Positions 2,840-29,488 of a stretch of DNA of 32,000 bases are shown piece after piece. The DNA is taken from contig NZ_JAQFIQ010000014.1 in the NCBI RefSeq assembly GCF_029504745.1, positions 1-32,000 of the forward strand, read 5' to 3'. The first letter of the stretch is position 1; each line of letters begins with the position of its first letter. This DNA is from Breznakia sp. PF5-3 (GTDB lineage Bacteria > Bacillota_I > Bacilli_A > Erysipelotrichales > Erysipelotrichaceae). The notes under the pieces were generated by a model. The model was not told the origin of the DNA and did no database searches. It saw only the letters and a list, made by a program, of their open reading frames with translations. Made by a program: the position numbers and the translations under genes.

Positions 2840-3045
2840 AAAAAAACCATCCTTAATCATAAGGACGGTTTAGACCGCGGTACCACCTTAGTTCATTTCA
2901 TATATATGAAATGCGCTTCATTCACTGTAACGTAGCGACCCGTCTTATCCTACTTCTTTTCAAATAAGCTACTCATAAGTGATATCTTTACTATAGAAGC
3001 GTTTGCGTTTCACCATTTTCGCAACTCTCTGTTCACTTCAATACA
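2840..3045 (-). promoter_or_regulatory. T-box riboswitch leader (candidate Ile specifier AUC) with terminator hairpin
   Basis: On the minus strand: stem I AGAGAG...GGTGAAA elements (about 3010-3030), the conserved T-box sequence TAAGGTGGTACCGCGG (2875-2890), a terminator hairpin at 2847-2868 followed by a U-run (2840-2846), and a candidate specifier AUC-A at 2983-2981. Confidence 0.88.
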
Positions 3046-3057
3046 ATAAAGCATGTC

Positions 3058-3519
3058 TTAATCTTTGTATTTCTTTTCTATTAATTCTACATTAGGAATT
3101 GGGGGAATGTCAAATCCATCTATTGTATCTGACAATAAAGCCAACTGTTCATTCAAATTCACTTTAATTTCATTTGCTTCAATTCCCAATTTTGATATTT
3201 TAATCAATATCGTTCTTGCATTCAACAAGGCTTCCTTAATAATCATATCTGCATTATTATTTGCACTGTTTACAATGCTATTTGCTTCACTCAATGCAAT
3301 CCTTGTCATATCTTTTGCAGCTTGTTCTTTGATTTCTAAATCTCTTGATAACTGCTCATATTTCACTTTATACTTTTGAATGCATTTTTGATCTTCTTCA
3401 CTTTGTTTCTTATAAGCATCCAACTTTTTCTTTAATTCATCTATTTCTTCTTGGGCTTTGGATAATGCGTCATCAACTTGAAAACGATTATAACCCTTAT
3501 TCATAGTATCAAATTGCAT
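3058..3519 (-). CDS. divIVA: DivIVA-domain cell division protein
   Basis: 153 aa. N-terminal F..MNKGYNRFQVDDAL DivIVA motif followed by coiled-coil sequence. The sepF-ylmH-divIVA-ileS synteny is conserved. Confidence 0.9.
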   Translation of the reverse strand: MQFDTMNKGYNRFQVDDALSKAQEEIDELKKKLDAYKKQSEEDQKCIQKYKVKYEQLSRDLEIKEQAAKDMTRIALSEANSIVNSANNNADMIIKEALLNARTILIKISKLGIEANEIKVNLNEQLALLSDTIDGFDIPPIPNVELIEKKYKD

Positions 3520-3529
3520 TTCCTCACCT

Positions 3530-4282
3530 CTACTTATATTTCCCTATTTCAATACATAATCGATTACTACGTGTTCGTTTTCCCAAATCATGTACTTGAA
3601 ATCGTCCATATCCACGAATCGAAAGAATACAATCATTATGGCATATGTAAGCACAATCTTCAAGAGGAAGATGATTAACTTTTATCTTTCCATCTTGTAT
3701 GAGCTTCTTTGCTTTTTCCCTAGATAAATGTGTAATTGTAGCAACTAAAACATCCAAACGGAATGAAGAAACATTTTTATATTCATACTCCAATTCTGGT
3801 TCAAATACTATTTCTTCATAACATGGTTCAAAGGTAAGCGAACACTGTTTGATTCGTCTTAACTCAAGACGGATATACGCCTCAATTTCTTTAGCTACAA
3901 ATATATAAATATGTCCTTTTTCCACAACGATATCACCAAATTGATTTCGATTAATTCCTAAGTTCATAATTGACCCCAACACATCACGGTGGTCAATTGT
4001 ATGAAACTTTATTTGATAATCGGCCTTTAAGCAAACGATTGGAAAAGGTATCACCATTGGTTCTTGACTCAATAAGCAACGCTTATTTTCACTATTCTCA
4101 TAGCCTCCATCAAATGCAACAACCACTTTTTTTCCAACGTAAGAGGTTAAAATTGATTGTTCTAATGGAGTTAAAAAGGGAGTGAAAACTTTTCGATAAT
4201 CTTCTACTTGATCAACGTAGTCATCAATTCTCGAAATAAAATCTTCATTCCCTTTGAAATGTACAAAAGCTTTGTTACTCAC
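3530..4282 (-). CDS. ylmH: YlmH-family RNA-binding (S4-like domain) protein
   Basis: 250 aa, sitting between sepF and divIVA, with a C-terminal S4-like region. The GTG start overlaps the sepF stop (TAGTG). Confidence 0.8.
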   Translation of the reverse strand: MSNKAFVHFKGNEDFISRIDDYVDQVEDYRKVFTPFLTPLEQSILTSYVGKKVVVAFDGGYENSENKRCLLSQEPMVIPFPIVCLKADYQIKFHTIDHRDVLGSIMNLGINRNQFGDIVVEKGHIYIFVAKEIEAYIRLELRRIKQCSLTFEPCYEEIVFEPELEYEYKNVSSFRLDVLVATITHLSREKAKKLIQDGKIKVNHLPLEDCAYICHNDCILSIRGYGRFQVHDLGKRTRSNRLCIEIGKYK

Positions 4283-10226: not shown

Positions 10227-11242
10227 TGAAAACATATAATGTTGCTATTTTAGGTGCTACTGGTGCTGTTGGACAAGAAATGATGAATATCTTAGTTGAG
10301 CGAAAGTTCCCTATCAACACCTTAAAATTATTAGCTTCTAAGCGTAGTGTTGGCAAAAAAATGTCTTTTGATGGAAAAGAAATTACAGTCGAAGAAGCTC
10401 TGCCAACTTCTTTTGAAAATGTAGATATTGTTTTAGGAGCTGTAGAAAACGATATCGCTGAAAAACTATTGCCTTATGCAGTAAAGGCTGGTGCTGTTGT
10501 TATCGATAATTCTAGTGCTTATCGTTTGGATGATAATGTACCTTTAGTTGTTCCTGAAGTAAACCCTCAGGATATAAAAAAACATAGTGGAATTATTGCC
10601 AATCCAAATTGTTCTACAATCATTGCTCTTGTAGCAATCTATAAACTACATGAATATGCAAAACTAAAATCTATTATCGCCTCTACTTATCAAGCTGTTT
10701 CAGGTGCTGGTGTTCCAGGGTTAGAGGAATTAACCCAACAAACACAACAAGTACTAAATGATGAGGAAATTTCTCCAAAGGTATTTCCTTACCAAATAGC
10801 CTTTAACTTAATTCCTCAAATTGGTGGATTTGATGAAAATGGGTATTCTAGTGAGGAAATGAAAATGCAAAATGAGGGAAGAAAAATTCTTCATCATCCA
10901 GATTTGAATGTTACTTGTACTTGTGTAAGAGTTCCTGTACTTCGTTCCCATTCAGAATCACTAACATTATTTTTTGAAGATGAAATAAGCGTAGAGAAGG
11001 CAAAAGAAATCTTAAGCGATACAGAAGGTGTAAAACTTATGGATAATCCCCAAAATCAAAAATATCCAATGCCTTTGGATACTAGTGATCAAGATTTGGT
11101 GTTTGTTGGAAGAGTTCGTAAAGATTTAACCCAAAAGGATAACAAATCATTATCGCTTTGGTGTTGTGGTGATCAAGTACGCAAAGGTGCTGCAACCAAC
11201 GCCGTACAAATTGCCATAGAATATATAAAACAAAACGCATGA
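10226..11242 (+). CDS. asd: aspartate-semialdehyde dehydrogenase
   Basis: 338 aa. ILGATGAVGQ NAD(P) motif and active-site region NPNCSTI. RBS GAAGGAG is present. Confidence 0.95.
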   Translation: MKTYNVAILGATGAVGQEMMNILVERKFPINTLKLLASKRSVGKKMSFDGKEITVEEALPTSFENVDIVLGAVENDIAEKLLPYAVKAGAVVIDNSSAYRLDDNVPLVVPEVNPQDIKKHSGIIANPNCSTIIALVAIYKLHEYAKLKSIIASTYQAVSGAGVPGLEELTQQTQQVLNDEEISPKVFPYQIAFNLIPQIGGFDENGYSSEEMKMQNEGRKILHHPDLNVTCTCVRVPVLRSHSESLTLFFEDEISVEKAKEILSDTEGVKLMDNPQNQKYPMPLDTSDQDLVFVGRVRKDLTQKDNKSLSLWCCGDQVRKGAATNAVQIAIEYIKQNA

Positions 11243-20920: not shown

Positions 20921-21487
20921 TTAACCATATGTCTTTAATATTTCCTTTGCTACCATTTCTTTTGAAACACGTTTATCCATCGCTTTCTTTTCAATATATC
21001 GATGTGCTTGTACTTCGCTCATATTCAAATATTCAATCAGAACGTACTTTGCTCGACTAATCAATTGAATATTTTCTACTTTTTCATGTAAACGAATATT
21101 TTCATCATGAAAATTACTAATTCTTCGATGTGTCGATAGTGCCATTGAGATCGCTTGTGTGAACACTTGACGATCAAGTGGTTTTCCTATACACATAACA
21201 CCAAATTTATTTAGCCGATTACTAACATCTTCTAAGATTTCCTTTTTTATCAACATAACTACTCCACTAGTTGAATTTTGTGCAGCATACATTGTAATCT
21301 CATGCCCAAATTCATCAGCGAGTGGTGTATTGATTAACACTAAATCAAAACGTTGAGTATTCAACAACTGTTTTGCTTCTTTTGCACTTTTACTAGCTAC
21401 AATCGTATCGATATGAATAGCTTTTAAAAGTTGTGATAGTGCATCAAGACTTTTATCTAAACTGGAAACAATCAAACAACTACTCAT
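20921..21487 (-). CDS. ANTAR-domain antiterminator with a degenerate (pseudo-)receiver domain
   Basis: 188 aa. The C-terminal ANTAR region is LISRAKYVLIEYLNMSEVQAHRYIEKKAMDKRVSKEMVAKEIL. The N-terminal part has a CheY-like fold but lacks the acidic pocket and the phospho-acceptor Asp. Confidence 0.85.
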   Translation of the reverse strand: MSSCLIVSSLDKSLDALSQLLKAIHIDTIVASKSAKEAKQLLNTQRFDLVLINTPLADEFGHEITMYAAQNSTSGVVMLIKKEILEDVSNRLNKFGVMCIGKPLDRQVFTQAISMALSTHRRISNFHDENIRLHEKVENIQLISRAKYVLIEYLNMSEVQAHRYIEKKAMDKRVSKEMVAKEILKTYG

Positions 21488-21503: not shown

Positions 21504-22775
21504 CTAAATTAATTTAAAATATGGATCACTATCAAATCTTTGCTCATCTTTATATGATGCAGCTTCTTCACTCTTTATTTCACAGAACATTGTAACTGTT
21601 TTTTTATTTATTACTTCTTTAACAAATTCTGAATTTTGTACACTTTCTACAGCTTCTTTCAGATTTTTTGGCAATTCCTTTGTACTTTTTGAATGCCCCT
21701 CACTCAATGTTTCACTTTTTCGCATCCCTTCAATTCCCGCATATAATAATAAGCCATAGGCGTAATAAGGATTACATGCAGCATCTGCTGAGCGCAACAT
21801 GATATAAGAATACTCATCTTGCTTTTCATCAACACGCAACAACTGACTTTGATTCCCTTCGGCCCAAGTTATGTACTTTGGTGCTTTTTCACTTCCCAAA
21901 CGTTCATAAGAATTATTAATTGGATTCAAAAACAAACTCATCTCATAAGTACGATTCAATACTCCAGCAATAAAATTTCGTTGTTCCTCCAAGTTTACTT
22001 CATAATCATCTTCAAAAATATTTCGATCATTCTTGCTTAGGGTTACTTTAATTCTCAATCCACTACCACTTGCATCAGCAAGCGGGCGTGGTAAAAATGA
22101 AGCATACAAATCATTCAATAAAGCAATACTCTTTACACAGTTCTTAAACGTTATCAAGTTATCTGCAGCTTGCAATGCATAATTATCTTCAAAGGTTATC
22201 ACGTTTTGTCCAGGTCCTTTTTCATGATAACTCATCTTTGTTTTTACACCCATTTCTTCTAAAGAAAGACATATTTCTCGACGAATATTTTCACCACCAT
22301 CCAAAGGTGTAACATCCAAATACGATGCATGGTCAATCGGTCGATTTGTAGGATTTCCATCCACATCGTTTTGAAATAAATAAAACTCGCTTTCAATCCC
22401 TATTTTAGGTGTATATCCATAGGATTCACAAGCCTCCATCGCTTGTTTTAAAAAGTATCTTCCATCTCCTTCAAATGGCGTTCCATCAAGGTGTCGAATA
22501 TCACAAAAAAAACGAACAACTTTTTCATGACCTGATCTCCATGGCAAGATTGTCATTGTATCCAAATCTGGATAGAGTAGTAAATCCGTTTTCTTATAGT
22601 TCATAAAACCATTAACATCAGATGCATCTAAGTTAATTCCTTCTTCTGTGGCTTGTTCGAAGTCGTCTGCATTAATAGATAAATTTTTGAGTGTTCCAAA
22701 AATATCACAAAATGCTAAGCGAACAAATTTCACATGATTTAGCTCAATATACCGCAAAATTTTCTCTATTTTCAT
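21504..22775 (-). CDS. class I glutamine synthetase homolog with substituted active-site motifs (GS-like, possibly non-catalytic)
   Basis: 423 aa, collinear with GlnA (VKFVRLAFCDIFGTLKN, DGTPFEGD, GIESEFYLF, NSYERL, LRSAD..CNPY). However GQxE reads GQNV, NGSGMH reads SGSGLR, NRS reads NQS and ExRSxD reads MLRSAD. The ATG at 22775 is preceded by GGAGGA. Confidence 0.85.
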   Translation of the reverse strand: MKIEKILRYIELNHVKFVRLAFCDIFGTLKNLSINADDFEQATEEGINLDASDVNGFMNYKKTDLLLYPDLDTMTILPWRSGHEKVVRFFCDIRHLDGTPFEGDGRYFLKQAMEACESYGYTPKIGIESEFYLFQNDVDGNPTNRPIDHASYLDVTPLDGGENIRREICLSLEEMGVKTKMSYHEKGPGQNVITFEDNYALQAADNLITFKNCVKSIALLNDLYASFLPRPLADASGSGLRIKVTLSKNDRNIFEDDYEVNLEEQRNFIAGVLNRTYEMSLFLNPINNSYERLGSEKAPKYITWAEGNQSQLLRVDEKQDEYSYIMLRSADAACNPYYAYGLLLYAGIEGMRKSETLSEGHSKSTKELPKNLKEAVESVQNSEFVKEVINKKTVTMFCEIKSEEAASYKDEQRFDSDPYFKLI

Positions 22776-22796
22776 GACATCCTCCATTCTGTTTTC

Positions 22797-22825
22797 ATTA
22801 TAACACGAAAAATCTTATGTCTGAA
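22797..22825 (-). promoter_or_regulatory. candidate promoter of the GS-like/ANTAR/pyrG operon (TTCAGA-17-TGtTATAAT)
   Basis: Minus strand: extended -10 TGTTATAAT (22797-22805) and -35 TTCAGA (22820-22825). The predicted leader is very short, about 15 nt. Confidence 0.5.
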
Positions 22826-22868
22826 TTATAGACCTAATTATAAAATGATGTCAACTCTCAAAATCAAC

Positions 22869-22897
22869 TTTCTAAATTCAAAAAAATTGTCTATAAT
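22869..22897 (+). promoter_or_regulatory. candidate promoter for the GNAT gene (weak -35, TATAAT -10)
   Basis: TATAAT at 22892-22897, with TTTCTA/TTCTAA 16-17 nt upstream. Confidence 0.3.
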
Positions 22898-22937
22898 AAG
22901 GTTACATCTTACTAAAAAATATACTTGGAGAACGCTT

Positions 22938-23462
22938 ATGCACAATTATTTTTTAAAAACTAAACGAATTGGATTTTCAAAATGGAATTATGATGATTTG
23001 GAACTTGCAACAAAACTATGGGGCAATAAAGAAGTGGGTAAGTATATTCATGCAAATCATTTTTTTAGTGTTGAAGAGATACATGAGCGTCTAAAGGAAG
23101 AAATCAAGAATGAGGAATATTTTCATATTCAATATTTTCCTATTTTTTCATTATCTGACAATCAATTTATTGGTTGTTGTGGCTTTCGTCCCTTTGTGGA
23201 CAATCCACAACAAATAGAAATGGGATTTCACTTACTTCCTGCATTTTGGCATCAAGGATATGCCTTTGAAGCAAGTGATGCAATTTTAAAATACATTCAT
23301 AATAAACATCGTGAATTAAAGATTTATGCAGGACATCACCCTGATAATGAAGCTTCAGCAAGACTTTTAAAGAAATTGGGGTTTTTATACTTTAAAGATG
23401 AGTTTTATAAGCCAACAAACAAATATCATCGATGCTATCAATATTCTAAAAATATAGCTTGA
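22938..23462 (+). CDS. GNAT family N-acetyltransferase (RimJ/RimL-like)
   Basis: About 174 aa starting at the ATG at 22938 (RBS TGGAGAA). GNAT core: IGCCGFRP...GFHLLPAFWHQGYAFEA...ASARLLKKLGF. The ORF-track extension from 22845 is unlikely to be real. Confidence 0.85.
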   Translation: MHNYFLKTKRIGFSKWNYDDLELATKLWGNKEVGKYIHANHFFSVEEIHERLKEEIKNEEYFHIQYFPIFSLSDNQFIGCCGFRPFVDNPQQIEMGFHLLPAFWHQGYAFEASDAILKYIHNKHRELKIYAGHHPDNEASARLLKKLGFLYFKDEFYKPTNKYHRCYQYSKNIA

Positions 23463-23487
23463 CAAGAAACCCAAGAAAGGATAAACT
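23459..23487 (+). promoter_or_regulatory. candidate promoter TTGACA-17-TAAACT overlapping the GNAT stop codon
   Basis: A perfect -35 TTGACA (23459-23464), a 17-nt spacer and TAAACT (23482-23487). A transcript from here would begin just upstream of the attenuator hairpins. Confidence 0.35.
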
Positions 23488-23512
23488 CTTTGTATAACAG
23501 CAAAGGTGCTGT
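23476..23512 (+). promoter_or_regulatory. candidate ANTAR-type dual hexaloop hairpin (P1 and P2); P2 competes with the terminator
   Basis: P1 is AAAGG-AUAAAC-UCUUU (23476-23491) and P2 is ACAGC-AAAGGU-GCUGU (23497-23512), separated by a 5-nt linker. The P2 loop has A at position 1 and G at position 4. P2 uses nt 23505-23512, which belong to the left arm of the terminator. Confidence 0.4.
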
Positions 23513-23541
23513 AGGTATTTTTATCTACGGCACCTTTTTTT
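23505..23541 (+). terminator. strong intrinsic terminator/attenuator in the glnN leader
   Basis: GGTGCTGTAG-loop-CTACGGCACC 10-bp stem (one G-U pair) followed by 7 T (23535-23541). Only 15 nt separate the T-run from the glnN RBS GGGAGG (23557-23562). Confidence 0.8.
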
Positions 23542-23568
23542 GTTAGTTCGATTAATGGGAGGAAATTT

Positions 23569-25668
23569 ATGAAAACAAACGTGACTGAGGTTTTTGGGTC
23601 TATGGTCTTTGATGATCGTTGTATGAAAGCAAAGTTACCTAAAGATGTTTATAAAAAGTACAAAGCTACGATCGATGAAGGAAAGCTTCTTGATCCTGAT
23701 TGTGCTAATACCATTGCATCCGCTATGAAAGATTGGGCTATTGAAAACGGTGCAACACATTATACTCATTGGTTTCAGCCAATGACAGGAATCACTGCAG
23801 AAAAGCATGATGCTTTTATTTCTCCAAGTGGAGATGGAAGTATTATCATGGAATTTTCTGGTAAAGAACTTATCAAGGGTGAACCAGATGCTTCTAGTTT
23901 TCCTAATGGTGGATTACGAGCAACTTTTGAAGCTCGTGGTTATACTGGGTGGGATCCAACATCATATACATTCATCAAAGAAGGCGTTTTATGTATCCCA
24001 AGTGTCTTCATGTCTTACAATGGCGAAGCACTTGATAAAAAAACACCACTCCTAAAATCTCAAGAACTTATCAATACGCAAGCATTGCGAATTCTAAAGT
24101 TATTTGGTAAAGATAATGTGAAACGCGTTCATACAACCGTTGGTGCAGAACAAGAATACTTTCTTATTGAAAAGTCACTTTGGGATCAACGAAAAGACTT
24201 GATTTACACTGGTAGAACACTTTATGGTGCTAGACCTCCAAAAACTCAAGAACTTGATGACCACTACTTTGGTGTATTAAAACCAAAAGTAGCATCGTTT
24301 ATGAAAGAACTGAATGAAGAATTGTGGAAATTAGGTATTCTAGCAAAAACGCAACATAATGAAGTTGCTCCTGCACAACATGAATTAGCACCTATCTATT
24401 CACTCACAAATGTCGCTACCGACCATAATCAACTAACTATGGAAATCATGAAAAAAGTGGCCTTACGCCATGGACTTGTTTGTTTATTACATGAAAAGCC
24501 GTTTGCAGGAATCAACGGAAGTGGTAAACACAATAACTGGTCCCTATCAACAGATACCGGAGAGAACCTGTTAGAACCTGGAGATACGCCAAGTGAAAAC
24601 GCTCAATTCTTGCTTATGCTAGCAGCGCTAGTTAAAGCTGTTGACGATTACCAAGACTTACTAAGAATATCTGTTGCAAGTGCAGGAAATGATCATCGCT
24701 TAGGTGCTAATGAAGCCCCTCCTGCAATCATTTCCATCTTTACTGGTTCTGAGTTAGAAGAAATCATAAATGCAATCATTGAAGATAGACCTTGCAAAAC
24801 GGTATGTGCGAATAAAATGACCATCGGTGTTGATGCCTTACCTCCTTTTACAAAAGACACAACCGATCGTAATCGTACATCACCGTTTGCTTTTACTGGA
24901 AACAAATTTGAATTTCGCATGTTAGGATCACAATTATCTATTTCTTGTCCTAATATTATGATTAACACAATTGTTGCCGATACATTAAATAACTTTGCTG
25001 ACCATTTAGAAAAAGCAACAGATTTTAATAAAGAATTACACGAATTGATTAAAAAAACATTTACTGAACATCAAAGAATCATATTTAATGGTAATGGATA
25101 TGATGATTCATGGATTGTAGAGGCAGAAAAGCGAGGACTTATGAATTTTAGAACTACGCCAGAAGCTTTGCCACACTATATGGATGAGAAAAATATTCAA
25201 TTATTTACTAGAAATAACATTTACACAAAAAGTGAAATGCAATCTCGTATGGATATCTTAATCGAAGAATATTCAAAGGCTATTAATATTGAAGCAGAAA
25301 CAATGGTAAACATGTCTAAGAAGAATATCATTCCTGCCATTTTAGCTTATATCAAAGATTTGAGTGAAAGCATTGTTACCAAAAAGGCAATATCTTCAAC
25401 GATAAAGTTTGAAGTTGAAGACTCTCTCATCAATAAATTAAGTGTTCTTGCGAGTGATTTGTATCGTAAAACAGAAGAATTAGCAGATGATATCATTAAA
25501 GCTAATGGAATTAAAGACTTGCAAGAAAATGCTAAATATTATTGTAATAGCGTGCTTGTGAAAATGGTTGACTTGCGTGCCATTGCCGATGAAATCGAGC
25601 AAAACTGCGCCAAGCAGTATTGGCCCTTCCCTTCATATGGAGATTTATTATATTCTGTCTCTATATAA
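23569..25668 (+). CDS. glnN: glutamine synthetase, type III
   Basis: 699 aa with GSIII length and N-terminus. Catalytic motifs are intact: AEQEYFL, HNEVAPAQHE, NGSGKHNNWS, ANEAPP, DRNRTSPFAFTGNKFEFR. Confidence 0.93.
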   Translation: MKTNVTEVFGSMVFDDRCMKAKLPKDVYKKYKATIDEGKLLDPDCANTIASAMKDWAIENGATHYTHWFQPMTGITAEKHDAFISPSGDGSIIMEFSGKELIKGEPDASSFPNGGLRATFEARGYTGWDPTSYTFIKEGVLCIPSVFMSYNGEALDKKTPLLKSQELINTQALRILKLFGKDNVKRVHTTVGAEQEYFLIEKSLWDQRKDLIYTGRTLYGARPPKTQELDDHYFGVLKPKVASFMKELNEELWKLGILAKTQHNEVAPAQHELAPIYSLTNVATDHNQLTMEIMKKVALRHGLVCLLHEKPFAGINGSGKHNNWSLSTDTGENLLEPGDTPSENAQFLLMLAALVKAVDDYQDLLRISVASAGNDHRLGANEAPPAIISIFTGSELEEIINAIIEDRPCKTVCANKMTIGVDALPPFTKDTTDRNRTSPFAFTGNKFEFRMLGSQLSISCPNIMINTIVADTLNNFADHLEKATDFNKELHELIKKTFTEHQRIIFNGNGYDDSWIVEAEKRGLMNFRTTPEALPHYMDEKNIQLFTRNNIYTKSEMQSRMDILIEEYSKAINIEAETMVNMSKKNIIPAILAYIKDLSESIVTKKAISSTIKFEVEDSLINKLSVLASDLYRKTEELADDIIKANGIKDLQENAKYYCNSVLVKMVDLRAIADEIEQNCAKQYWPFPSYGDLLYSVSI

Positions 25669-25711: not shown

Positions 25712-25741
25712 AAAGGAGAACTTCATTCAAAGTTCTCCTTT
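25712..25741. terminator. bidirectional terminator between glnN and the convergent hypothetical gene
   Basis: AAAGGAGAACTT-cattca-AAGTTCTCCTTT perfect 12-bp stem. Its right arm overlaps the stop codon of the minus-strand ORF. Confidence 0.8.
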
Positions 25742-26456
25742 ATATTTCGACGGTTGTTGATTCTGGAAAATTCAAATTATATTCATCAAAGGTAAAATTC
25801 AAGTCAACATGATAGGTTCCTACAGGAGCTTGTGATGTATCCAATTCATATATTGAATTCATATGCACATAATCACTTTCTTCTGCTACTTTATTATTAC
25901 TTATATAGTTGATTTTCATATCCACCTTTTGATCAAAATGAACTTCAACCTTTGGTGCGTTAACAGGCTGGGTTTTCTCATAATAATAAGAAACTGTGTA
26001 TATAATTTTGCTTTCCGTTTTTGTATTAGTAACCTGAAAATCTAATACTTCATCTATATAACTATATGTACTTTTCTCTATTGTTTTTCCATTGTCCAAT
26101 GTTATTACGAAAGAAAATTCATTATTCCCAGTATGAATACCACTTCCAAACAAACCAATAGAATATACAGCTTTATCACTTACATCTTGTAGTAATTTTT
26201 CCCCATGATAGATTTCCATTTTTTCTATTATGTCATTTCCACGATTGACACTCCAATTAAAAGTAAGATTAAGCCCTTGTGTTAATGATACACTAAAACT
26301 CTCAATTCCTGTATTGGTATCGCCACTTGTCCCTGGATCAGGAGTTCTTGTATTTGTGTTTGAATTTCTTGTAAGTTGTATAACCAACGCGGTGATACAT
26401 ACTACAAGGATGGTTATCAAAGCAATAAACACTTTATTTTTTTTCAAATATTCCAA
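25740..26456 (-). CDS. hypothetical membrane-anchored extracytoplasmic protein
   Basis: 238 aa. TTG start preceded by AAGGAG. N-terminal TM anchor (VFIALITILVVCITALVIQL), an N/T/G/P-rich linker and then a beta-strand-rich domain of about 190 aa with no motif I recognise. Confidence 0.65.
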   Translation of the reverse strand: MEYLKKNKVFIALITILVVCITALVIQLTRNSNTNTRTPDPGTSGDTNTGIESFSVSLTQGLNLTFNWSVNRGNDIIEKMEIYHGEKLLQDVSDKAVYSIGLFGSGIHTGNNEFSFVITLDNGKTIEKSTYSYIDEVLDFQVTNTKTESKIIYTVSYYYEKTQPVNAPKVEVHFDQKVDMKINYISNNKVAEESDYVHMNSIYELDTSQAPVGTYHVDLNFTFDEYNLNFPESTTVEI

Positions 26457-26588: not shown

Positions 26589-27419
26589 TTAATCAAATAC
26601 TGCAACTACTAAATCACCATATGTTTTTTCAATGTATTTCTTAGTTTTTGCGTTTGTTAAGACTTTTATCAAAGCTTTGATTTTTTTATCATCCCCATGC
26701 CCTTTTTTAACTGCGATTACATTTGCATATGTTTGTGCTGCTTCACTACCTTTATCTTCTGACACAATCAAGTTTCCATCCACTTCATTTGTCAATGCAT
26801 AATTTCCATTTATGATAGCATAATCTACATCAGGTAATGTTGCTGCTACACCTTCCGCTTTAACTTCAAGAATTTCAACATTCTTTGGATTCTTCGTGAT
26901 ATCTGTTTTAGTTGCTGATAATCCTGCATCTTTTTTTACCTCGATAATTCCTTTTGCAGCTAACAATTGAAGAGCTCTTGCTTCATTTGTTGGATCATCT
27001 GGCACAGAGATAACAGCGCCGTCTTTCACATCATCAACTGAGAAATCTTCATTTTTTTCAGTTGTATCATTACTATAAATTCCAATTGGTTCAAAGTGAA
27101 TTTTTGCCACTGCTTCTACTTCTGTACCATTATCTTCATTAAATCCTTCTAAATATGGCGTATGTTGGAAAAAGTTTGCATCTATTTCCCCTTCATCAAC
27201 AGCTAAGTTTGGTTGAACATAATCATCAAATACTTGAATATCTAACTCATACCCTTCTTTTTTCAAATCTTCTTCAATGCTTTCTAAGATTTCTGCATGT
27301 GGTGATGCAGAAGCTCCAATTGTAATTGTTTCTAATTCTTCTTTAGCTTCATCACCACTATTTCCACCACAGCCTACTAATAGTCCTAAAGCTATAAATA
27401 CACCTAATAATTTTTTCAT
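26589..27419 (-). CDS. metQ: methionine ABC transporter substrate-binding lipoprotein (MetQ/NlpA family)
   Basis: Lipobox LLVGCGG. NlpA-family sequence features and a position in the metN-metI-metQ operon. Confidence 0.92.
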   Translation of the reverse strand: MKKLLGVFIALGLLVGCGGNSGDEAKEELETITIGASASPHAEILESIEEDLKKEGYELDIQVFDDYVQPNLAVDEGEIDANFFQHTPYLEGFNEDNGTEVEAVAKIHFEPIGIYSNDTTEKNEDFSVDDVKDGAVISVPDDPTNEARALQLLAAKGIIEVKKDAGLSATKTDITKNPKNVEILEVKAEGVAATLPDVDYAIINGNYALTNEVDGNLIVSEDKGSEAAQTYANVIAVKKGHGDDKKIKALIKVLTNAKTKKYIEKTYGDLVVAVFD

Positions 27420-27431
27420 TTCTTTCTCCTC

Positions 27432-28175
27432 CTAATGGGTTGTTTTTCTTGTTAAATAATTTCCTAATGCTTGTATCGCGGTTACGATTAATAAAATAAT
27501 AATTACTGTAGACCAGGTTGCATCCACTTTACCTCGTGCATATCCATGTCGAATAGCAAATGCACCTAGACCTCCTCCTCCTACTTGACCAGCCATTGCA
27601 GTTAATCCAAGCAATGAAATCAAGGTAATTGATACGGAGCGAATAATACCAGGAATACTCTCTTTTAAATAAACTCGTGTAATGATTTGCATTGGTGTGT
27701 TTCCCATTGCAATACTTGCTTCAATCAATCCATCATCTACTTCTGAAAGTACCGATTCAATTTGTCTTGCAAAAAATGGAATAGTTCCAAAAATTAAGGG
27801 AATATATGTTCCTTTTATACCAGTTGCCGTCCCCATAACCAATCTTGATGCACCAACCAATAAAGCCATCAAAATAACAAATGGAATAGAACGGAAGAAA
27901 TTAATAAATTTATCTAAGATAAAATAAATAATTTTGTTTTCCAAAATTCCATCTTTCTTAGTAACGGTAATAAGAACCCCAAAGATTATTCCAAATATCA
28001 ATGCAAAGATTCCTGAAAAGAATAACATTTTTAATGTCATATATGTTTCTTGTACCAATTCACTAATCATTTTAGGATTATTCATAAAATCCATAGGTAG
28101 AAATTGTGTAACAACATCAAATATGACAGCTAAGATTGACTCAAAAAAATTTGAAATCATTGTTCCTATATCCAT
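27432..28175 (-). CDS. metI: methionine ABC transporter permease
   Basis: 247 aa polytopic protein with an ABC permease loop (DDGLIEASIAMGNTPMQII). The start overlaps the metN stop (TAATG). Confidence 0.9.
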   Translation of the reverse strand: MDIGTMISNFFESILAVIFDVVTQFLPMDFMNNPKMISELVQETYMTLKMLFFSGIFALIFGIIFGVLITVTKKDGILENKIIYFILDKFINFFRSIPFVILMALLVGASRLVMGTATGIKGTYIPLIFGTIPFFARQIESVLSEVDDGLIEASIAMGNTPMQIITRVYLKESIPGIIRSVSITLISLLGLTAMAGQVGGGGLGAFAIRHGYARGKVDATWSTVIIILLIVTAIQALGNYLTRKTTH

Positions 28176-29209
28176 TATTTCAACACCTCCACTCCAACAC
28201 CTTGTCCTTTAATATACGTGATAGCACTTTCTATGTTTGCTTTTTCACCTTTCAGCTTAACCACCAAATTTCCAAGTGGACTATTCGCTAGTACTTCAAC
28301 ATTACCAAATATGATATTAAAACTAACATCATATGTTTTCACTAAGTACGTCATCAAAGCTTCTTTGGTATTGCTAGATGAGTAAACAAGCCGTAACATC
28401 GTCTCATCAACATCCAAATCGACAAGCGGATCATTCTTCTCAATCAATTCATAAATCTGATGAATCGATGTAGTCGTATTAATAAAAGTACGTGTAACTT
28501 CACTTTTTGGTTTTGTAAAAATATCTATGATATTTCCTTCTTCTACAATATTTCCATCTTCCATGATTGCTACTTTGTTACAAATCGCTTTTACAACTGC
28601 CATTTCATGAGTGATGATTACAATTGTTATTTTGAGCTTTTCATTTAAGTTTTTTAGAAGTGCTAGTATTGATTGTGTTGTTTGAGGATCAAGTGCACTT
28701 GTTGCTTCATCACAAAGCAGAATACTAGGATCATTAGCCAAAGCTCTTGCAATTGCAACTCTTTGCTTTTGTCCTCCACTAAGCTGTGATGGATATGCTT
28801 TCTTCTTGTCCTTTAATTCTACTAATTCCAATAATTCATCAACCTTCTTATTTATTTGCTCTTTACTTAAACCACTTCCCTTTAGCGGAAAAGCGATGTT
28901 TTGAGCAACAGTTCTAGATCTCATCAAATTGAAATGTTGAAATATCATTCCTATTTTCTTCCGTTCTGCACGTAAATCCCGTGCACTCAAATCCATTAAA
29001 TTTTTACCATCAATTACTACTTCACCCTCGGTTGGACGTTCTAATAAATTAATACAACGAATTAAAGTACTTTTTCCAGCACCACTGAATCCAATGACAC
29101 CAAATATATCTTTCTCCTCTATATGTAAGGATGCTTTTCTTACTGCATGTACATCATTTTCTTTGGTCTTAAATATTTTTGTGATATTCACTAATTGGAT
29201 TTTACTCAC
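28175..29209 (-). CDS. metN: methionine ABC transporter ATP-binding protein (with C-terminal NIL domain)
   Basis: Walker A GFSGAGKST, signature LSGGQKQR, Walker B ILLCDEATSALD. The likely start is GTG at 29209, preceded by AGGAGGTGG; the ORF-track extension to 29260 would run into the T-box terminator. Confidence 0.93.
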   Translation of the reverse strand: MSKIQLVNITKIFKTKENDVHAVRKASLHIEEKDIFGVIGFSGAGKSTLIRCINLLERPTEGEVVIDGKNLMDLSARDLRAERKKIGMIFQHFNLMRSRTVAQNIAFPLKGSGLSKEQINKKVDELLELVELKDKKKAYPSQLSGGQKQRVAIARALANDPSILLCDEATSALDPQTTQSILALLKNLNEKLKITIVIITHEMAVVKAICNKVAIMEDGNIVEEGNIIDIFTKPKSEVTRTFINTTTSIHQIYELIEKNDPLVDLDVDETMLRLVYSSSNTKEALMTYLVKTYDVSFNIIFGNVEVLANSPLGNLVVKLKGEKANIESAITYIKGQGVGVEVLK

Positions 29210-29228
29210 ACTTCCACCTCCTATAAAA

Positions 29229-29488
29229 TAAAAAAACATTCTCCCAAAGGACGAATGCATCGTGTTACCACCTTAATTTACTAATATATTACTATATTAG
29301 CCTCTTCGAGTACTATCATACTCTATCACAATAACGGGTGAACCCGACATAATCTAAAGAACTCTCATTCAATTATGTAACTCCAAGACCATTTTCGATA
29401 AACTACTAACCTTATCCATTTTCACCATACTGGACTCTCTAAGAAGGATTTCATAAATGTACTCTTCTCTTCATCGTTTTTAATTTAT
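29229..29488 (-). promoter_or_regulatory. T-box riboswitch leader (candidate Met specifier AUG) controlling metNIQ
   Basis: On the minus strand: stem I AGAGAGTCCAGTATGGTGAAAATGG, candidate specifier GAA-AUG-A (AUG at 29368-29366), the T-box sequence TAAGGTGGTAACACG (29261-29275), and a terminator hairpin at 29237-29257 followed by a T-run. Confidence 0.88.

Follow-up and report, generated by a model that had tools for sequence, protein, structure and literature searches.

Organization of the glnN locus

The DNA analyzed here is a stretch of 32,000 nucleotides (nt) from Breznakia sp. PF5-3 (family Erysipelotrichaceae; contig NZ_JAQFIQ010000014.1), which we call the window, and our subject is the leader of its glnN gene, encoding a type III glutamine synthetase (GS) of 699 amino acids (aa) (23569 to 25668, plus strand; Pfam GSIII_N, Gln-synt_C, and Gln-synt_C-ter). 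Upstream lie pyrG, an ANTAR gene, and glnA on the minus strand, followed by a GNAT acetyltransferase gene on the plus strand (22845 to 23462; Pfam), which is outside the conserved unit described below. The ANTAR gene (20921 to 21487, minus strand) encodes a NitR-like regulator of 188 aa, composed of a pseudo-receiver and an ANTAR domain (Pfam), that we propose as the antiterminator, and it is co-transcribed with glnA (21504 to 22787, minus strand), a homologue of GS I-alpha according to domain and family matches. We consider it probable that the glnN leader is an ANTAR-type antitermination attenuator of a conserved nitrogen regulon, in a form with a single hairpin, to which an ANTAR protein would bind.

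A promoter scan found the -35 box TTGACA (23459 to 23464), in which the GNAT stop codon TGA (23460 to 23462) is embedded, and, after a spacer of 17 nt, the -10 box TAAACT (23482 to 23487). An earlier note on this DNA, made from the letters and a list of open reading frames, had called this promoter perfect, which is right for the -35 box, whereas the -10 box matches TATAAT at only four of six positions. The linker GUAUA (23492 to 23496), 5 to 9 nt past the -10 box, is the predicted transcription start zone, based on family-wide promoter geometry. It is followed, 9 nt after the end of the -10 box, by a hairpin named P2 (23497 to 23512; stem ACAGC/GCUGU, hexaloop AAAGGU at 23502 to 23507), the closing pair of which is C23501-G23508 and the loop of which carries A1, A2, G4, and G5; it is recognized by its fold, by covariation, and by its match to the consensus of the eut and nasF hairpins. 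The transcription start of glnN most likely lies about 3 nt before P2. An intrinsic terminator (23502 to 23541; fold and scan) comes next, in which 23502 to 23517 pairs with 23522 to 23537 around a UUUU loop and a run of seven T occupies 23535 to 23541. The Shine-Dalgarno sequence GGGAGG (23557 to 23562), read from the sequence and kept in relatives as GGAGG, precedes the glnN ATG at 23569. A further hairpin, P1 (AAAGG-AUAAAC-UCUUU, 23476 to 23491), can be drawn upstream of the linker; we reject it below as an RNA element and regard it as promoter DNA. The GNAT stop codon, both promoter boxes, P1, the linker, P2, the T-run, and the Shine-Dalgarno sequence all stand where the earlier note had placed them.

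Mutually exclusive hairpin and terminator

The terminator proved to be stronger than first described. The earlier note had drawn a hairpin of 10 bp followed by seven T (23505 to 23541); the T-run is as claimed, whereas the stem comprises 16 bp (23502 to 23537) with a loop of 4 nt. A region of 110 nt around it folds at -32.7 kcal/mol (z = -4.4), and none of 200 shuffled sequences was equally stable. P2 alone folds at -6.4 kcal/mol and is the first structure to form during transcription, and the terminator (-24 to -27 kcal/mol) replaces P2 as soon as the 3' arm of the terminator has been transcribed. Positions 23502 to 23512, which make up the hexaloop and 3' arm of P2, also belong to the 5' arm of the terminator; the overlap amounts to 11 nt rather than the 8 nt previously counted. 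P2 and the terminator are mutually exclusive, as the overlap and the folding energies indicate and as had been claimed.

Because the terminator lies within the glnN leader, glnN needs read-through. Besides, only 15 nt separate the T-run from the Shine-Dalgarno sequence, which leaves no space for a promoter, and therefore all glnN transcripts cross the terminator. The claim that glnN is expressed solely by terminator read-through thus holds.

Conservation in close relatives

We fetched seven close relatives with the leader by protein search (glnN identity, 75 to 88%) and aligned the 196 nt before the ATG of the window and these relatives (eight sequences); an additional locus, L086, is truncated at the 5' end of glnN, and its leader is absent from the alignment. 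The closest glnN homologues with names, from Breznakia and Erysipelotrichaceae bacterium MTC7, share 81% identity. The gene order pyrG, ANTAR gene, glnA, and glnN is common to all seven. In the eight leaders, TTGACA, the sequence TAAAMT 17 nt further on, the P2 core AGC-AA.GG.-GCU, and the U-run are invariant, and there is no conservation upstream of the -35 box. P2 is retained in all seven close relatives, in which its loop reads AA(A/G)GG(U/C) with G4 and the closing pair invariant, and the arms of the terminator vary in a compensatory manner.

The GNAT gene has been inserted between glnA and glnN and, among the seven close relatives, is shared by L083 only. In the other six, glnA is directly divergent from glnN with a spacer of 240 to 460 nt. 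The position of the terminator directly after the GNAT stop codon would fit an ordinary GNAT terminator, with glnN expressed by constitutive leak-through or controlled at the DNA level by repression of the GlnR/TnrA type. We regard this explanation as extremely improbable. Since six of the seven close relatives keep the hairpin and the terminator without a GNAT gene, the terminator is not that of GNAT and glnN needs its own promoter, and that promoter indeed lies upstream of the terminator. Nor is there a GlnR/TnrA box near the glnN or glnA promoters: a search for TGTNA-N7-TNACA with up to one mismatch found none from 22700 to 23560, and the window as a whole contains 26 such sites versus 31 expected. 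A further point against it comes from covariation in the wider family.

A family of glnN leaders in Clostridia and Erysipelotrichia

A scan with one genome per species yielded, among the matches listed, at least 80 glnN loci with 60 to 65% identity, mostly from Clostridia. A hairpin of the P2 type was found in about 58 of the 87 glnN loci examined (Clostridia and Erysipelotrichia), giving 68 units upstream of glnN in 58 loci. The layout is recurrent: TTGACA-N17-TAnnnT, about 10 nt, and a hairpin NNNGC-AANGGY-GYNNN, with the loop and 3' arm opening a long terminator. Selection of the units relied on the loop pattern, on C-G as the closing pair, and on a terminator that begins in the loop, so that the invariance of G4 and the closing pair is partly, and the overlap with the terminator likewise, by construction; the stem was not used for selection. 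Loop position 1 is A in 63 of the 68 members (G in 5) and position 4 is G in all 68, G4 being part of the selection pattern; the counts for individual loops include AAAGGC (23 units), AAAGGU (9), and AAGGGC (8).

The stem covaries across the 68 units. Pair 2 is GC in 34 and AU in 27; pair 3 is CG in 26, AU in 25, and UA in 4; and pair 4 is GC in 31, GU in 24, and AU in 8. Two thirds of the units retain pair 5, and positions 6 and 7 are unpaired. The covariation score of the stem was 0.427, compared with 0.247 in shuffles, none of 500 of which scored as high, and partner columns slid out of register reached at most 0.16. In 33 distant homologues, the terminator is paired in 91.8% of cells, and at 10 of its 14 base pairs both partners have changed. 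Covariation between the two arms of P2 is of no use to a plain terminator, which also argues against an ordinary GNAT terminator. The search for covariation and conservation that the earlier note had called for was thus positive for P2; for P1 it was negative, as described in the next section.

A near-consensus promoter, with its -10 box ending 6 to 16 nt (mode, 10) before the 5-bp stem, precedes 50 of the 68 units. The earlier note had added the caveat that this promoter would leave P2 alone on the transcript, and the equivalent promoter at the same distance in these homologous leaders bears the caveat out. Most of the remaining 18 units are the second copy of a tandem leader, in which either copy has a terminator to itself.

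We built a covariance model (R2) from 33 distant members, all of them from Clostridia, with the window and its close relatives excluded from the seed. R2 matched the window at 23494 to 23543 with 53.4 bits (E about 2e-12; E-values are rough owing to a short calibration) and nowhere else, and the window element ranked first among 74 R2 matches in all fetched sequence. The window leader therefore fits the R2 family, that is, a sigma-A promoter, a distance of 6 to 16 nt, a C-G-closed AANGGY hairpin, an overlapping terminator, and a nitrogen gene. A second occurrence of GCAAAGGTGC, at 11181, lies inside the asd coding sequence with neither stem nor terminator, and we attribute it to chance.

As a different type of explanation, a ligand-sensing riboswitch would require more than the 16-nt hairpin, which is too small, and no Rfam family matches. 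With Rfam 15, the region from 23380 to 23620 gave no match at the gathering score, and the best by E-value were meaningless models of miRNAs and small RNAs; at gathering thresholds, the whole window contained two unrelated T-boxes only.

A single hairpin at the predicted 5' end of the transcript

The earlier note had read P1 and P2 as the tandem hexaloop architecture of published ANTAR targets, and it is this part of its proposal that was not supported. P1 can be drawn with 5 bp and a loop of 6 nt beginning with A1, at a distance of 5 nt upstream of P2, and the minimum-energy structure of a longer RNA in RNAfold includes it. A canonical dual-hairpin target, with P1 and P2 co-transcribed, for example from the GNAT promoter, and bound by an ANTAR dimer, can accordingly be envisaged, since the GNAT gene in the window and in L083 could provide read-through transcripts. 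However, P1 has a folding energy of just -1.7 kcal/mol and a G-U closing pair, and its loop AUAAAC, which has A1 but lacks G4 as had been noted, coincides with the invariant -10 box. P1 pairing is lost in L084 (AUUGA/UCUAU), L085, L087, and L088, relatives at no more than 81% glnN identity, and in six of the seven close relatives no gene upstream runs in the direction of glnN. Given that P1 is the promoter spacer plus the -10 box and that these six lack such a gene, the transcript should start after P1.

The family gives no sign of a P1 either. Where P1 would lie, hairpins with a 6-nt loop occurred in 15 of the 68 members, compared with 17.1 ± 3.7 in shuffles; those with A1/G4 loops numbered 2, compared with 1.3 in shuffles; and a second ANTAR-like hairpin within 60 nt was found in one member only. 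We also looked for another hexaloop, either beyond P2 or in the apical loop of the terminator, and none was conserved. Taken together, the loop that is an invariant -10 box, the weak fold, the pairing lost in relatives, and the lack of enrichment led us to reject P1 as an RNA element.

A dual-hairpin covariance model (R1), built from seven eut seeds, aligned to the window over both P1 and P2 (23477 to 23511), which favors the canonical architecture at first sight; yet this top match was weak (14.9 bits, E about 0.03), and whereas its P2 half was near perfect, the model dropped the P1 loop from the alignment. We regard a co-transcribed dual-hairpin target as very improbable here. The glnN leader lacks one defining feature of published ANTAR targets, a tandem of P1 and P2 with a linker of 5 to 12 nt, and the leader family has one hairpin, located at the predicted 5' end of the transcript. 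Elsewhere in the window, a eut-like AGC-AAAGAA-GCU lies at 3702 to 3714 (minus strand) within a 250-aa open reading frame (ORF; 3530 to 4282), where R1 scored 12.6 bits; it has no terminator and probably occurs by chance.

Two copies of the unit were found in ten loci, each copy with its own terminator, although one of these cases is an overlap artefact. These tandem leaders look like two serial attenuators rather than a P1/P2 pair. Tandem units about 64 nt apart were also observed in amtB and pyrG leaders of the Ruminococcus type (L012, 332 to 450; L015, 353 to 470; L030, 1936 to 2050; and L039, 243 to 350), with ACAGC-AAGGGA-GCUG as the first hairpin and AUACAC-AAAGGG-GUGUAU as the second, and the glnN leaders of L011, L028, L035, L036, L049, and L060 are likewise tandem.

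Nitrogen genes preceded by the unit

Nitrogen genes other than glnN are likewise preceded by the hairpin-plus-terminator unit. We counted 47 such sites in the flanking sequence of the fetched loci, distributed over genes for a class II amidotransferase (glutamate synthase-like, gltB-like; 14 sites), amtB fused to PII (12), glnA or glnA-nitR (7), asnA (5), pyrG (4), guaA (2), and gdhA, purA, and a large glutamate synthase (1 each). The promoter lies at a distance of 6 to 14 nt in 25 of the 47. Within the window, glnN alone carries the unit. In several Clostridia, a unit without its own promoter lies between the glnN stop codon, which it directly follows, and amtB-PII (L004, 6123; L063, 6112; L071, 6150; L078, 6110; and L025, 6113). 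By their position, these units between glnN and amtB-PII would be attenuators inside an operon.

The ANTAR regulator and its linkage to the hairpin

The earlier note had invoked an ANTAR protein, and one is indeed encoded nearby: the product of the gene at 20921 to 21487 matches Pfam ANTAR with an E-value of 5e-14, and its receiver domain scored 28.6 bits, slightly below the cut-off of 30.2. Among protein structures in PDB, it matched Rv1626 (1.6e-11) and EutV (1.7e-5). The phospho-accepting Asp (LMD/IMD in Rv1626/EutV) is replaced with Asn in the window protein (DLVLIN), and the acidic DD pair is replaced with SS; Asn also occupies the Asp position in most of 27 ANTAR relatives encoded next to glnN. 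No kinase gene was found in the neighborhood of the ANTAR gene in the window. Where EutV has Tyr164 and Rv1626 has Phe, the window protein and 26 of the 27 relatives have His, within the motif 'AH.YIEK.AMD'; a Tyr or Phe follows two residues after that His, and the plug of the Met172 type is retained in these ANTAR proteins.

To assess linkage, we considered the 75 loci for which 2.5 kb or more upstream was available and scored an ANTAR gene within 4 kb. An ANTAR gene was nearby in 27 of them, and all 27 have the hairpin (24 by automatic criteria and L007, L031, and L084 by eye), whereas an ANTAR gene is absent from the vicinity of all 21 loci that lack the hairpin (Fisher p = 0.004 by the stricter count). 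It could be argued that another factor, such as an RNA-binding protein, the GS-like GlnA, or a small RNA, holds the hairpin and that the ANTAR gene is merely a neighbor. Points in favor of this are that 27 loci with the motif have no ANTAR gene within 4 kb, that the regulator has a pseudo-receiver and His in place of the Tyr that stacks on G4, and that ANTAR binding to this hairpin is for now a proposal. Against it, the motif and the ANTAR gene are linked as described above, the regulator keeps the Met of its RNA-binding surface along with the remainder of the ANTAR motif, and the loop and closing pair match those of validated ANTAR hairpins base for base. We therefore consider another factor unlikely and retain the ANTAR protein as the probable ligand of P2.

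glnA shares the locus with the ANTAR gene in 21 of the 27 loci. Its product in the window, of about 423 aa, scored about 300 bits against Firmicute GS structures and 291 bits against the NCBIfam GlnA equivalog, the cut-off of which is 429. The gene probably starts at the ATG at 22775, which is preceded by GGAGG, and not at the annotated ATG at 22787. Its promoter (22854 to 22825) is a consensus one according to the promoter scan and is followed by a plain leader of about 45 nt; no hairpin-and-terminator leader was found before the glnA-ANTAR operon of the window, whereas some other species have one there. AmiC-AmiR, NasS-NasT, and GS-GlnR/TnrA are precedents for regulation controlled by a partner protein. 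By analogy, the GS I-alpha protein may be the sensor partner of the ANTAR regulator, which is speculation at this stage.

Comparison with known ANTAR systems

Validated seed hairpins from the eut genes of Enterococcus faecalis and Listeria and from nasF of Klebsiella oxytoca include CAC-AAUGGC-GUG, GAAGC-AAAGAC-GCUUC, and, as P2 of eutA, UAAGC-AAAGGC-GCUUA. Their consensus, a closing C-G pair and the loop R-A-N-G-R-N, is also that of the glnN-leader hairpin family, and P2 with its loop AAAGGU is an ANTAR-type A1/G4 hexaloop hairpin, as the earlier note had proposed. C-G closing occurs in 14 of the 16 hairpins of eight eut/nasF seed rows, the exceptions being P2 of nasF (U-G) and P1 of E. faecalis eutA. 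In EutV targets, A1, G4, and the bases that form the closing pairs are important (Ramesh et al. 2012, PMC3369931), and G4 flips out and stacks on Tyr164 of EutV (Walshe et al. 2022, PMC8934654).

The eut leaders controlled by EutV/EutW resemble the glnN leader in having a C-G-closed A1/G4 hexaloop hairpin, the loop and 3' arm of which form the 5' arm of the terminator, and in the gene for a receiver and ANTAR regulator nearby; P2 of eutA is almost identical to members of the glnN family. They differ in that the glnN leader has one hairpin directly after the promoter, with neither P1 nor linker, and in that the window regulator lacks the phospho-accepting Asp and an adjacent kinase gene and has His for Tyr164. 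Furthermore, the eut genes serve ethanolamine use, whereas nitrogen assimilation genes are concerned here.

Another counterpart is NitR (previously named GlnR), the gene for which follows glnA in Clostridium saccharobutylicum and Clostridium acetobutylicum, with Clo1313_2030 in Clostridium thermocellum. The window shares with it the operon of glnA followed by an ANTAR gene, and antitermination of ammonium assimilation genes has been proposed for NitR (as cited in PMC4676874). It differs in that a divergent glnN joins the controlled genes and in its host, a member of the Erysipelotrichaceae. Our term NitR-like sets the window protein beside the original NitR by description, not by sequence. In the literature that our search reached, which did not extend to the original NitR papers, we found no defined RNA target of NitR, no report of a single-hairpin NitR target, and no glnN regulon under ANTAR control.

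AmiC-AmiR of Pseudomonas aeruginosa and NasS-NasT of Paracoccus and Azotobacter likewise achieve ANTAR antitermination without control by phosphorylation, through a pseudo-receiver or through sequestration by a partner protein encoded alongside. In contrast to the glnN system, their partner is a sensor resembling periplasmic binding proteins, and dual hairpins have been described as their targets. In the window, the one conserved candidate that could stand beside AmiC and NasS as a partner is the GS I-alpha homologue, on speculative grounds.

ANTAR targets before Firmicute genes for glutamine synthetase, glutamate synthase, the transporter AmtB, and asparagine synthase were predicted in 2012 (Ramesh et al., Table S2; PMC3369931). 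The gene classes are the same as ours, and the matches had been screened for an overlapping terminator, but a dual-hairpin model was used, only one or two targets were listed per clostridial genome, and a promoter-proximal architecture with one hairpin and its breadth are not described there. A 2025 review lists all characterized ANTAR targets as 'dual hairpins', and neither in this review nor in the papers of 2012 and 2022 did we find a conserved class of promoter-proximal one-hairpin ANTAR targets tied to a non-phosphorylatable ANTAR subfamily. The kind of system is nevertheless already known, as ANTAR control of Firmicute nitrogen genes was predicted in 2012 and the clostridial glnA-NitR arrangement is older.

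Proposed mechanism

The promoter, the hairpin, and the terminator, with their conservation, covariation, and exclusivity and their links to nitrogen and ANTAR genes, are results of computation, and the following model is built on them. The promoter of the sigma-A type (23459 to 23487) would start the RNA about 3 nt upstream of P2 with its hexaloop AAAGGU. If P2 remains unbound, its loop and 3' arm would be captured by the downstream sequence to form the 16-bp terminator with its U7, and transcription would stop 27 nt before the glnN ATG. The NitR-like ANTAR protein, the gene for which lies 2 kb upstream, would in its active state, presumably when nitrogen is limiting, bind and hold P2, and G4 and the closing C-G pair would take part in recognition. 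With P2 held, the terminator would be blocked, and RNA polymerase would read into glnN. Such a leader would depart from the targets of EutV, NasR, and AmiR in its lone hairpin and in the placement of that hairpin at the start of the RNA.

Several points weigh against this proposal. A target with one hairpin contradicts the sole detailed mechanistic model, in which EutV needs both hairpins in vivo: deletion of P1 abolishes induction, and a lone stem-loop is bound markedly worse in vitro (PMC3369931). The His in place of the G4-stacking Tyr164 may mean that RNA recognition differs or that the true target is another. The ANTAR gene is near only 27 of the 75 loci, a count in which flanks of 4 kb cannot show genes located elsewhere. 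The stem of P2 has just 3 bp in the three closest relatives (L081 to L083), and two unrelated intragenic sites in the window nearly equal the 14.9 bits of R1. Besides, we infer, rather than compute, the start site, ANTAR binding, read-through, the direction of regulation, the signal, and the control of the pseudo-receiver.

Other features of the window

Two full-length T-box leaders, which point to Firmicutes, lie on the minus strand. That at 2858 to 3074 (116.6 bits) is upstream of a 913-aa ORF at 78 to 2819, and that at 29244 to 29483 (112.3 bits) is upstream of a methionine-type ABC transporter operon (26589 to 29260; ABC_tran/NIL, BPD_transp_1, and NlpA lipoprotein). A 238-aa ORF (25740 to 26456, minus strand), convergent with glnN, has no match in Pfam or NCBIfam; a 237-aa ORF without a Pfam match occupies the equivalent place in L081, L082, L084, and L085.

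Significance

In the textbook view, ANTAR antitermination requires two hairpins and a dimer, formed on phosphorylation, that binds them. As a tentative idea, for which we see somewhat less than an even chance, the NitR-like ANTAR proteins could form a distinct class, characterized by the pseudo-receiver Asn and the motif 'AH.YIEK.AMD', a single hexaloop target at the 5' end of the transcript, a nitrogen regulon, and an activity set by GS I-alpha in place of a kinase. The regulon of such a class may comprise glnN, glnA, gltB-like genes, amtB, asnA, gdhA, pyrG, purA, and guaA in Clostridia and Erysipelotrichia. In the window, glnN would, already on our main reading, be the nitrogen-regulated glutamine synthetase; glnA, paired with the regulator, has no such leader.

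If the ANTAR protein does bind this hairpin, the recognition rule of ANTAR proteins would widen, and the scattered clostridial finds of dual-hairpin searches would be explained. Moreover, R2 would then be a searchable marker of the nitrogen-limitation regulon in uncultured Firmicutes of the gut and rumen, in which nitrogen control is poorly understood.

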